Assembly: GCF_030384885.1 (NCBI RefSeq)
Contig: NZ_CP128613.1
DNA: 64,000 bases
Source: Escherichia coli
GTDB taxonomy: Bacteria > Pseudomonadota > Gammaproteobacteria > Enterobacterales > Enterobacteriaceae
Strand: one strand, 5' to 3'
Shown here: piece after piece, positions 46,828-51,855 of the stretch
Numbering within the stretch: position 1 is the stretch's first letter
How the letters are laid out: every line of letters begins with the position of its first letter
The notes under the pieces: model-generated
Databases searched by the model: none
Seen by the model: only the letters and a program-made list of their open reading frames with translations
What the model was told of the DNA's origin: nothing
Position numbers and translations under genes: made by a program

Positions 46828-49800
46828 TTACCACTGAATACCGGCACCGAGTGCGGCGGAGTATTCACCCTGGCTATTGGTACTACCTTGTAATTTGTAG
46901 ACCCAACGACCATTGGCGCTCACCATCGACACACCTAAAGCAACAGCCGATTCGCCGTTGTAAGTACCACCACCAATAGAGGCCATGCTGGCTCCCGGCG
47001 TGTAAGCCTGCGGCAGACCGGTCATTGCCATTGCGGAAGCGATACCACCGCTCAACTTGCTTTCGGTTTTGGACAGTTTGTTATCCATCTCAACCATGCG
47101 CTGATCGGTGTATTGCTTCGTTTCCTGCACACTTTGCTTCAACTGTGCATAGTTCACTGCGTCGTTGTTGTTCACGCCCGCAGAAACGTTGCTGATGCGA
47201 GTCGTACCGCCATTGCCGCCACCGAGAGTGATGTTGCTGTAGTCGATAGAGCCATCAGCTTTGGTGTCGTAGCGAACGCCACCTGCTTCGGAAGACTTCA
47301 GTTGCGAAACGTTAACCGCATCAGTGGCATTAACACCGGCAGCAACGTTGGTGATACGGCGCTGGTTGGTAGAAGAACCCACAGAGATTGTGTTTTCTTC
47401 GTTGGCCACGGAGCCTGTACCCAGAGCGACGCTGTTGTCAGCGGCAGCAATGGATCCAGAACCAATCGCCACACTGTCTTTACCCTGGGCGTTAGCATCT
47501 ACGCCATCGGTGTTGGTCTTGAAGTACTTGGTGCTACCTGTGGTTACGATATCGCCAATACCGTTCTCGATATTGGTCACGCGAGTATCCAGATTCGTCA
47601 CCTGATTGTTCAGGTTAGTAATGCTCTGGGTATTCTGGGAAACCTGCGCATCCGTTACTTTCAATTGACCCACGTTGACCGCATCGGTATCAGCCGAACC
47701 AGCCGCGACGTTGGTGATCTGACGTTGACCGTCTTCGCTACCTACGGAGAATTCACCCACAGAGTTCTGCGGTGCATCCATGTTGTAGGCGGTGTAGCCA
47801 GTTTGTGCGCCACGGGTAGTTTGAGAACCATTACCCATTGCAATGCTGTTTGCATGGTTTGCACGCGCGTTGCTACCGATAGCAATACCGTTAATCGCAT
47901 CTGCCAGAACTAAAGTGTTCAGGCCGATACCAATACCTGCATTACCATTAACGATGGTTTTTGCGCCCATTGCCAGCGAGTCTTCACCGACTGCCAGTGA
48001 GCCTTCAGCCGTTGAATTGGCGTGATAGTATTTGGTCGGCGTGGTGGCTACTGCACCAATCGCATTCTGCAACTGGCGAACCGTAACGGCATCATGGGCT
48101 TCAGAACCATCGGCAACATTGATGATTTGACGATATTTACCATCGTCACCGATCGACAATGCGCCAAGCAGTTCACCGTCAGTTGTGTCATAACCAATCA
48201 CAACACCTTCTTCCGACACGCTGGTGTCACGAGAACCTTTAACTATTACACGGCTGGAAACGGAACTGCTACCCAACGCAATACTCGTATCAACGATGCT
48301 GCTGCTGCCCTGACCGATGGCCACGCTGCTATCGCCTTTGGCAACAGAGTTATAACCCACAGCAGTAGAGCCAATGCCTGCTGCGCTGGCATCGGTGAAG
48401 GTTAAACCAGTGTCATTGGTACGCACATAGTTAATGCCCGCACCGTTTTCTTCGATGTAGGTTTCGCTAGTGTTACCGGCAAGCTGATTGATGACTTCGC
48501 TGTTCTGCTGGATCAGCATATTGGTGTTAAACAGCTGAGAACCGTTGATAGCATCGGTGCTACCTTCACCAATGTTACCATCAGCAACGTTTGTGATAAT
48601 GCTGGCCTTGCCGTCATGACTGGCGTTGTAAGCCCCTTCGCCGTTATTGGCGGTCGCATCCCACAGCAGCGCGTTCTCATCAAGCGCATCCAGAGCGTCA
48701 CCGACATTGTTGTACTCGGCATTCGCAATGGTGTAAGTCGGCGCAGTGATAGTACCGTCAGCGTTAACTTCTGCATCACCGCCCAGAGCATCAGCGATAT
48801 ATTTGTTAGTGGTATAGAGTTGTGAGCCGTTAATCGCGTCGCTGCTGGTGGCAGAGATTGCACCATTTGCGACGTTAGTAATCTTACTGGCAGTGTTATC
48901 TACCCCACGACCGGCGCTGAATGCACCAGCACCGTCATTGGCTGTTGCATCCCAGAGCAGGGCGTCATCCAGCGTGGTATCGATCGCTTCCAGTGCGTCA
49001 CCAACGTTGCTGTAACTGCCGCCAGCGATGGCATAAGTCGGTGCGGTGATACTGCCATCCGCATTCACCACAGCGTTCCCGCCCAGAGCATCGGCAATGT
49101 AGTCACTAACGCCATAAAGCTGTGAACCGTTAATAGCGTCACTACTGGTGGACGAGACTGCACCGTTTGCAATATCAGTGATTACACTGGGATCATTATT
49201 AATGCCGTGTTTGGCGCTGAATTTGCCTGCGGTTGTATCCCAGAGCAGAGCATCACCGAGAGAATCACTAAATGAAGTGTTAATCGCAGCCAGAGCATCC
49301 CCGACGTTAGTGTAGTCAGTGCCGCCAATACTATAGGTTGGCCCGGTTAATACACCTGTATCGCTAATATCAGCACCACCACCCAGATAGGACGTGAATG
49401 AATCAGCCAAACCGTAAAGTTGTGAGCCATTTATGGCGTCAGTGCTGTCAGAGGAGACTATGCCAGCTTGTACGTTGCTGATTTTGTTGGTGGCGTTGGT
49501 GCCGTGTGCAGCGGTGAATGCGCCTGCGGCATCGTCCCATTTCAGGGCGTCTTCACCGAGGTTAGTCACCGTATCAGTCAGGTTAGTGATATTGGTGGTG
49601 TTAGTCGCCACGTTATCGTTAGTGGTTTTCAGCTGAGAACCGTTAACGGCGTCGGTGCTGGTGTCAGAGAGTTCGCCAGCGGTGACATTGGTGATTTTGT
49701 TGGTGGCGTTGGTGCCGTGTGCAGCGGTGAATGCGCCTGCGGCGTCGTCCCATTTCAGGGCGTCTTCACTAAGGTCAGTCACCGTATCAGTCAGATTAGT

Positions 49801-51855
49801 GATATTGGTGGTGTTAGTCGCCACGTTATCGTTAGTGGTTTTCAGCTGAGAACCGTTAACGGCGTCGGTGCTGGTGGCTGAAAGGTCGCCAGCGGTGACG
49901 TTAGTGATTTTGCTGGTGGCGTTGGTGCCGTGTGCAGCGGTGAATGCGCCTGCGGCGTCGTCCCATTTCAGGGCGTCTTCACTAAGGTCAGTCACCGTAT
50001 CAGTCAGGTTAGTGATATTGGTGGTGTTAGTCGCCACGTTATCGTTAGTGGTTTTCAGCTGAGAACCGTTAACGGCGTCGGTGCTGGTGTCAGAGAGTTC
50101 GCCAGCGGTGACATTGGTGATTTTGTTGGTGGCGTTGGTGCCGTGTGCAGCGGTGAATGCGCCTGCGGCGTCGTCCCATTTCAGGGCGTCTTCACTAAGG
50201 TCAGTCACCGTATCAGTCAGGTTAGTGATATTGGTGGTGTTAGTCGCCACGTTATCGTTAGTGGTTTTCAGCTGAGAACCGTTAACGGCGTCGGTGCTGG
50301 TGGCTGAAAGGTCGCCAGCGGTGACGTTAGTGATTTTGCTGGTGGCATTTGTACCATGTGCCGCACTATATCCCTTTTTAAGGTTGTCCCATTGTATCGT
50401 ATTCGTGTTTAGATCCGCTAAGGCGTCGCCAACATTGCCATAAATACCATTTTTCAGTCTGTAATTCGGGGAAGTCACAACGCCCTGCGAATTGACGGTC
50501 GCTCCTCCACCAAGATTATCCGCTACTGACTTACTAATAGCATAAAGCTGTGATCCATTGATGGCATCAGTACTGTCAGTGTCGATATCACCTTTTGCCA
50601 TATTGACAATTTTTCGCTGAGCTGTTGTGTTACCCACGGAGACAGTATCCGCTTCAGTCGCGACAGAATCAGCACCCAGAGCAACTGAATTTTTCCCCTG
50701 AGCACTGGCTTGAGCACCAATTGCAGTACCATTTTCTAAACCGGCATAACTGCCTTGTCCAAGAGCAATGGCATTTGCCCCACCGGTAATACTCCCATTT
50801 CCCAGCGCGATAGCATTTGCGCCGTCAGCTTTATTCCCTTGACCGATGGCAATTGTGCCAGCTGCTATTGCCTGACTTTGACTGCCCAGAGCAATCGTGT
50901 TGTCGGCATCGGCAATACTCCCGGAACCCAACGCGATACTATTAAGCCCATTTGCTTTCGCATCAGTACCCACTGCCGTTGCATTTTCAGCGGCTTTGGT
51001 CTTAGAGCCCATCGCGATGGAGTCTTTACCGGCTGCATCACTGTTATATCCCAGCGCAATACTGTCTTCACCAGTAGCTTTACTTTCTGACCCCATTGCC
51101 AGACTGTACCATCCGAAGGCTTTAGCTTTATAACCAATGGCTGAGGAAAAGAAGTTGGCTTCTGTTTCTGCTCCCATAGCCATGGAACCTGTATTCTCTG
51201 CCTTAGCTTTTCTACCTAATGCGAGACTGTCTTCACCACTAGCAGCACTCTCACTACCTGTGGCAATGGAGTTAGTTCCTGATGCTTTGGCCAATCGCCC
51301 TAATGCAAGGGCATTCGCAGCACTTGCTACCGTATCCTTGCCCAACGCCATGGCACCTTCAGCTGTAGCTTGTGCAGAATTCCCCAGTGCAAGGGTATAA
51401 TCGCTGGTCGCTTTAGCCGCACTGCCGATGGCGATTGAGCGGCTACCCGTGGAAACCGTTGATTGCCCTAAGGCGACCGATCTTTCTCCTGAGGAATTAC
51501 TCGAGAAGCCAATTGCAGTACTCCCCACTCCGGCATTAGCTCTTGCCCCGACAGCAACACTCCCTGTACCCGTTGTGCCTGTACCCATTGTATCTGATGA
51601 GGCGACGGCCTCTTTACCAATAGCAATCCAGTTATCACTCAGTGGCGTTTCGCCTGCAATTTCTTCTGCGCTTTTACCACCGTCAAGTGAAACCGAAGCA
51701 TAGGCTCCAACTGATGAGAGTAACCCACCGGCAACTAGCGCAGAAATTAACAGCTTACTGCGCCCGCTCTTTTTCCCACGACTCTTAGCCGTTTCGCTGG
51801 CAACGGTGTAACTGCCCGTCGCTGGATTCCAGATAACTTTAAAAATTTTGTTCAT
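46828..51855 (-). CDS. Trimeric autotransporter adhesin (YadA-like; UpaG/EhaG/SadA family), 1675 aa
   Basis: N-terminal extended signal peptide [21 protein letters not shown]...; long head region of degenerate ALG/SIAxG repeats; stalk with tandem 71-aa repeats; C-terminal membrane anchor ending ...AALGAGIQW. Confidence 0.92.
49470..50400. repeat. Tandem 213-bp (71-aa) coding repeats, ~4.3 copies, in the adhesin stalk
   Basis: The motif gattttg(t/c)tggtggc recurs at 49480, 49693, 49906, 50119 and 50332 (period exactly 213 bp); the protein repeat is AAHGTNAT(S/N)KITNVTAG(D/E)LS(A/D)[50 protein letters not shown], with two alternating variants. Confidence 0.9.

Follow-up and report, generated by a model that had tools for sequence, protein, structure and literature searches.

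A tandem array was analysed in the gene of a trimeric autotransporter adhesin (TAA) of Escherichia coli, located in a 64,000-nt stretch of the chromosome (contig NZ_CP128613.1 of assembly GCF_030384885.1; hereafter the window, numbered from its first letter). We put at roughly 85% the probability that whole structural modules in a stalk of the UpaG/EhaG/SadA type are repeated here in tandem, in frame and in variable number, the modules being gained and lost by misaligned homologous pairing. Alleles with four, five and eight modules exist in near-identical genes. The gene, the array and its units, which were cut on the coding strand from amino acid (aa) 482 on and named A to E, are as follows:

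46828 to 51855, minus strand: TAA gene, 1675 aa plus stop codon, 5028 nt (open reading frame, translation, exact protein look-up, PDB matches).
49479 to 50346, minus strand: variable-copy array of 213-bp tandem units, 4.08 units (Tandem Repeats Finder, comparisons at offsets 213 and 426, block lengths).
50200 to 50412, minus strand: unit A, aa 482-552, array entry; the first 66 nt are diverged and the 3' part is of the S/DLSA variant.
49987 to 50199, minus strand: unit B, aa 553-623, N/ELSD variant.
49774 to 49986, minus strand: unit C, aa 624-694, S/DLSA variant (variable-site table).
49561 to 49773, minus strand: unit D, aa 695-765, hybrid unit (variable-site table).
49348 to 49560, minus strand: unit E, aa 766-836, array exit; the first 82 nt are repeat-like and are followed by the first FGG-type 100-aa unit.

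Tandem Repeats Finder reports positions 49475-50361 as a single strong array with a period of 213, 4.2 copies, 95% matches, 0% indels and a score of 1606, and by direct offset comparison the block of high identity spans 49479-50346 (868 nt, 4.08 units). When the array block is compared with itself at an offset of 213 there are 27 mismatches, and at an offset of 426 there is one (at 49795) over the 357 compared positions of 49564-50346. The array lies inside the open reading frame 46828-51855 on the minus strand and is in frame because 213 nt correspond to 71 codons; the score of 1606 together with the in-frame periodicity rules out a chance repeat. The copies are 96-99.5% identical in DNA, and two variants alternate to give the higher-order period of 426 bp. 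The original prediction, made from the sequence alone, had described exact 213-bp (71-aa) in-frame tandem units in an adhesin stalk at 49470-50400, with two alternating variants that form a 426-bp higher-order repeat. The in-frame units, the alternation and the position of the array in the stalk of a TAA gene are borne out; the word "exact" slightly overstates the 213-bp period, though it is nearly true of the 426-bp period, and the right end of the span was about 50 nt too generous. Two antisense open reading frames on the plus strand, 49468-49881 (137 aa) and 49930-50307 (125 aa), are copies of each other produced by the array, and as genes they have no independent support.

Among the full units, B and D differ at one nucleotide per 213 nt, B and C at eight, and C and D at nine. 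Unit A, in which the 5' third is diverged, differs from the other units at 33-40 nucleotides, and unit E has only its first 82 nt in common with the repeat. Units A and C are of one type (S/DLSA) and units B and D of the other (N/ELSD). Unit C is A-like at unit positions 74-110, a stretch that is, to judge by the variable sites, the footprint of a two-unit (426-bp) duplication, and it matches a unit of E. coli strain 2013C-4282 at 100%.

The copy number of the array among other genomes was obtained by searching 5426 complete genomes with the 1440 nt that encode the head, and the units were typed at the nucleotide level. Eleven complete E. coli genomes match the head at 100% or 99.9%. Ten of them carry a 5241-bp gene with five units and the unit string A G H H I E, and one, strain 2013C-4282, carries a 5880-bp gene with eight units and the string A B C F G H H I E; the allele in the window is a 5028-bp gene with four units (A B C D E). 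The gene lengths differ from that of the window allele by exactly 1 x 213 and 4 x 213 nt, the array block being 1065, 1278 or 1917 nt in genes that are otherwise near-identical: there are 0-1 differences per 1443 nt of the head, 1-2 in the 2520 nt at the 3' end of the gene, 0-1 in the 5.6-6.9 kb upstream of the array and 2-3 in the 4.2-5.1 kb downstream of it; the flanks come to about 10-11 kb, with 0-3 SNPs. Further out, the window is 100.0% identical to the 5-unit genomes over 21.8 kb and 12.1 kb (positions 25001-46800 and 51856-64000). Nine of the 5-unit genomes encode an identical product (WP_039268492.1), and the tenth, Ec73552, encodes WP_392711709.1, with the same unit string and one further substitution outside the array. 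The array thus has the marks of a variable-number tandem repeat, namely units longer than 50 residues that are almost identical in DNA and a copy number that differs between close strains. Variation among isolates had been predicted, and an identical number in all related strains together with strong synonymous divergence between copies had been named as evidence to the contrary; neither is seen, with four units in the window, five in ten complete genomes and eight in 2013C-4282.

A second 4-unit allele, J K I I E, is found on a 4.76-Mb contig (GCA_948470315.1); of the 24 sites at which it differs from the window gene, 23 lie in the array. The two 4-unit alleles differ in unit composition, and the same length was therefore reached via different routes. 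Four units, in other combinations, are likewise present in two alleles whose head is different and which are 97% identical elsewhere. In an EhaG-like protein of 1589 aa there are four 71-aa spacings, and most of the units carry allele-specific residues (KATKDD versus KTTNDN in the window allele); residues that are common to the units of one allele indicate concerted evolution within arrays. Forms with an identical head and one, two or three units (1462, 1533 and 1604 aa) occur on draft contigs only (9-409 kb), and many of these are probably assembly collapses. Two further proteins with an identical head depart from whole units: one of 1711 aa (P0002) has a non-integer array with an extra half unit of 36 aa, and one of 1674 aa (P0007) has a single spacing of 70 aa. 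Both may be mis-assemblies or products of out-of-register exchange.

Each unit is a self-contained module that runs from coiled coil through a DALL connector and a neck back to coiled coil. One unit with its flanks aligns over 89 residues to the SadA fragment 2YNZ (E = 1.7e-19); 3ZMF and 2YO2 are matched as well. A review gives 2YNZ as reference structure of the DALL alpha-to-beta connector (PMC7247746). The Pfam model YadA_stalk matches once per unit. Read from the sequence, the heptad pattern of the unit is canonical, with L, V, I, V and A at position a and T, N, L and L at position d, i.e., a left-handed coiled coil of about four heptads per unit. It includes one VATNTTN motif of TAA coiled coils, with Asn at position d. 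Other upaG/ehaG alleles (P0090, P0112, P0058, P0004) contain versions of the module of 78 aa and 85 aa, with an additional 7 aa (ATNTSNI) or 14 aa (TNLTSEVAGNTTNI) within the coiled coil, that is, whole heptads. By their sequences, these longer modules are a second, nested level of length variation that preserves register, and such steps of one or two heptads fit a fibre that tolerates only register-preserving changes.

Since the units are 96-99.5% identical in DNA, misaligned pairing would add or remove whole modules. This could proceed by unequal sister-chromatid exchange, by replication slippage or by gene conversion. In E. coli, tandem repeats of such a length are known to undergo both unequal sister exchange and replication slippage. 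One unequal exchange, between units F and I, would drop exactly four units (852 nt) from the 8-unit allele and leave A B C D E. Gene conversion would shuffle the few variable sites, and hybrid units would mark the junctions. As the exchange is in register, each product would consist of complete modules only, and the reading frame and the register of the coiled coil would be kept through gain and loss. The Salmonella adhesin SadA, with 1461 aa, is about 108 nm long (PMC7247746, PMC11054257), and on this scale each module would lengthen the trimeric fibre by approximately 5 nm. Added modules would alter how many DALL-neck hairpins are exposed and where the N-terminal head lies relative to the lipopolysaccharide (LPS) layer.

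Unit D of the window allele is the candidate junction of such an exchange: by the variable-site table it is the same as unit F of the 8-unit allele as far as unit position 87, and the same as unit I from position 102. The window strain and 2013C-4282 are close relatives, as positions 1-25000 of the window, the spoT-recG-waa part, are 100.0% identical between them; the same part is 99.2% identical to the 5-unit genomes, to which the window is identical on both sides of the adhesin gene from position 25001 on, as given above. This pattern suggests that a recombination boundary lies within the LPS-core (waa) cluster or close to it. The same arrangement of units, a-b-c-d-e, is encoded in a draft assembly (P0003), and the window contig itself is chromosome-sized.

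Two observations weigh against a module array that is gained and lost by recombination. First, one identical 5-unit gene is present in nine complete genomes whose origins span three continents and several hosts, and since these nine are identical and the tenth has the same unit string, the array is not hypermutable on the time scale of clone spread. Second, unit D also closely resembles the consensus of units F, G, H, H and I, which makes the 4-unit state of the window inseparable from an assembly collapse of the 8-unit allele. The unit strings alone do not tell which allele is ancestral, and the alleles are compared here without polarity. Taken as it stands in these sequences, the array changes faster than point substitutions accumulate in its flanks, yet it is no hypermutable switch. 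An on/off phase-variable contingency locus is ruled out, the unit being 71 codons and all alleles being in frame and of full length.

Among the other explanations, the one that holds up best is selectively neutral turnover, in which identical DNA recombines and the length of the stalk has no adaptive role; we regard it as possible, although we would not favour it. It fits the occurrence of one identical 5-unit allele in nine of the eleven complete genomes, the tenth differing by a single substitution outside the array, and non-adaptive evolution has been argued for the TAAs of Brucellaceae (PMC7688925). The changes themselves are not indifferent to structure, however: all of them keep the frame and whole modules, and other alleles vary the coiled coil by whole heptads (+7 or +14 aa). 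This conservation of frame, module and heptad shows purifying selection on a functional fibre, though not selection on length itself.

Less likely, in our estimate, is that valency and not length is what matters, each DALL-neck beta-hairpin being a binding site for a ligand such as fibronectin, so that the number of modules tunes avidity. The repeated DALL-neck connectors of BadA and the adjacent coiled coils bind fibronectin cumulatively and antibodies to a DALL peptide block the binding (PMC9602544), and binding to extracellular-matrix proteins has been reported for UpaG (PMC7247748). The binding peptide of BadA, LEKGASKATQENSKITYLLDGDVSK, on the other hand, has no evident counterpart in the unit when the two are compared by eye. 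Binding by the hairpins would be compatible with gain and loss of whole modules by recombination, and the two are not mutually exclusive.

We consider it improbable that the lineage has one true array length and that the differences in copy number, including the four units of the window, come from assembly collapse or mis-expansion. Some of the data do have this appearance. All of the identical-head proteins with one to three spacings of 71 aa are on draft contigs, a form "a d f e" recurs on 33 contigs, which is what one would expect if a d f f f e collapsed systematically, and unit D of the window is the expected product of a collapse of F-G-H-H-I; repeats of this kind are known to defeat short reads (PMC8859334, PMC9704523). 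The warning of assembly collapse that accompanied the original prediction was justified by the 1- to 3-unit forms, seen on drafts only, and by the unit order of the window, which fits a collapsed 8-unit array. Chromosome-scale assemblies differ, however, in exact multiples of 213 bp, with five units in ten of them, eight in one and four on contigs of 4.74 Mb and 4.76 Mb, and A B C D E and J K I I E, being of differing composition, cannot be the same collapse. The identical 5-unit array in nine independent complete assemblies likewise argues that assembly of the array is reproducible.

Equally doubtful is a stalk tuned as a "trimeric periscope", its length selected to match the thickness of LPS or capsule so that the head is exposed or hidden; hints in this direction are the distinct spoT-waa (LPS core) segment, about 20 kb away, that the window shares with the 8-unit strain 2013C-4282, and a report that the function of SadA is masked by LPS (PMC7247748), and if it were true the TAAs would join the class of Periscope Proteins, from which the definition now excludes them.

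The gene that carries the module array encodes a product identical to WP_289787408.1/WJS55750.1 (exact protein look-up). Its other features and the gene directly upstream are listed below:

51697 to 51855, minus strand: ESPR-type extended signal peptide, aa 1-53, ending in GAYA (sequence; Pfam PF13018 on the identical protein P0001 and on P0006).
48544 to 49431, minus strand: three diverged neck-to-neck units with spacings of 100, 100 and 95 aa and an FGG-type insert each (NGSQL spacing).
46831 to 47091, minus strand: C-terminal YadA-type membrane anchor, aa 1589-1675 (PDB 2GR7 and 3EMO, the Hia anchor; Pfam PF03895).
51899 to 52582, minus strand: sadB homologue, a DUF3251 lipoprotein of the SadB/YajI family, 227 aa (open reading frame), directly upstream of the adhesin gene.

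In a PDB sequence search, fragments of SadA match along the passenger: 2YO0 (E = 1.6e-138), 2YO3 (9.6e-91), 2YNZ, 2YO2, 3ZMF and 2YNY. Pfam models PF05658 and PF05662 match YadA-like head repeats, necks and coiled-coil stalk. With a YadA-type beta-barrel anchor, a passenger of head, neck and coiled coil, an ESPR signal peptide and positional orthology, the adhesin is by its sequence a type Vc trimeric autotransporter, of which trimerisation, surface display and adhesion to extracellular matrix or cells are putative. The three FGG-type units are 62-81% identical to one another in DNA (repeat families D2 and D3) and are constant in number in all the alleles compared, unlike the neighbouring young array. 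The six NCBIfam models of TAAs that match the adhesin all do so far below their curated cut-offs (auto_Ata, 365 versus 2500 bits), and a search of NCBIfam with the sadB product gave no match; no curated family name can therefore be assigned to either.

The gene order in the window is spoT-recG-waa-...-lldP-TAA-sadB-yibL-mtl-rhs, on the E. coli chromosome. Annotated E. coli genomes have a "YadA-like family protein" between the gene of a DUF3251 "SadB/YajI family lipoprotein" and lldP, and the flanks of the window are 100.0% identical to annotated genomes with the order mtlR-yibL-sadB-TAA-lldP. Upstream of the array, to 6.9 kb and including the sadB open reading frame, there are 0 differences from loci in which WP_000023347.1 is annotated as "SadB/YajI family lipoprotein". 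Its location at the sadB-TAA-lldP locus makes the adhesin gene the positional orthologue of the UpaG, EhaG and SadA genes.

Several side observations concern this locus. The adhesin is a mosaic: in two alleles (L001 and L002) the part that corresponds to window positions 50980-51750 (head, aa approximately 36-290) is unrelated, with a length difference of 41 aa. These alleles are about 97% identical over the matched DNA, their protein is nearly identical through stalk and anchor, and further downstream L002 contains an additional 14-aa Ylhead repeat (SSVAMGYNSFAEGH). The IS5-like element ISEc35 splits the adhesin gene, or IS1A truncates sadB, in some complete genomes, and 1268 of the 5426 complete genomes (about 23%) gave no match to the adhesin gene. 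The 5' end of sadB (52385-52484, minus strand) contains a weak 42-bp tandem repeat (2.1 copies, 74-77% matches); 42 bp encode 14 aa, or two heptads, and the repeat would fit a coiled-coil segment in the helper lipoprotein.

The array is a well-resolved example of a polymorphism in module number that is already known for the TAA class, in which whole-module gain and loss is to be expected. UpaG/EhaG has been considered as a vaccine antigen, and the present array is a sequence-level case of whole-module gain and loss in it; with four, five or eight modules in otherwise identical genes, the targets of antibodies, the reach of the fibre and the length of the gene can differ among near-clonal isolates. 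Short-read assemblies probably under-report the copy number in this adhesin, so that typing schemes, pangenome clustering and allele databases will split the gene or mis-size it.

Compared with known systems, the adhesin of the window is closest to EhaG/UpaG of E. coli and SadA of Salmonella, with which it shares the chromosomal position mtlR-yibL-sadB-TAA-lldP, the ESPR signal peptide, YadA-like head repeats, necks, DALL and FGG stalk elements and the YadA anchor. The crystal fragments of SadA match it at E = 1e-138 to 1e-12, and the EhaG-like protein of 1589 aa has the same number of 71-aa spacings, four. The orthologues in strains CFT073 and Nissle are labelled upaG in RefSeq. Unlike these proteins, the window allele has its own head, which is covered to at least 80% in only 15 of the 5426 complete genomes, and its own module count; UpaG of CFT073 has a single match to the unit, at 87% identity.

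Two TAAs of other genera show comparable variation. In BadA of Bartonella henselae a module of coiled coil, DALL and neck is repeated, and the length of the gene varies among isolates via recombination of repeated domains (PMC8859334, PMC9602544); there, too, short reads fail and long reads resolve the repeat (PMC8859334). BadA has about 30 diverged domains and a neighbouring "toolbox" of pseudogenes, whereas the present array has four to eight near-identical units that are gained and lost within one gene. [quoted passage not shown] Its repeat unit and organism are different.

The Periscope Proteins (SasG, Rib, Sgo_0707 and others) share with the array repeats of more than 50 residues, very high DNA identity, a copy number that varies between close strains, a rod-like stalk that projects a distal functional domain, and homologous recombination as the proposed mechanism (PMC9704523, PMC8201768). 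The supplementary table of a screen for such proteins lists a Salmonella ESPR/YadA_stalk cluster, "UNK_YadA", with 90-aa repeats in 3-4 copies. Periscope Proteins are monomeric, single-chain rods of independently folding domains, and the review excludes trimeric autotransporters (PMC9704523); the module described here is a segment of an obligate trimer and not of a monomeric rod. By analogy, and with its effect on the projection of the distal domain taken from the scale of SadA, the array would work like the stalk of a Periscope Protein, yet it is no member of that class by definition.

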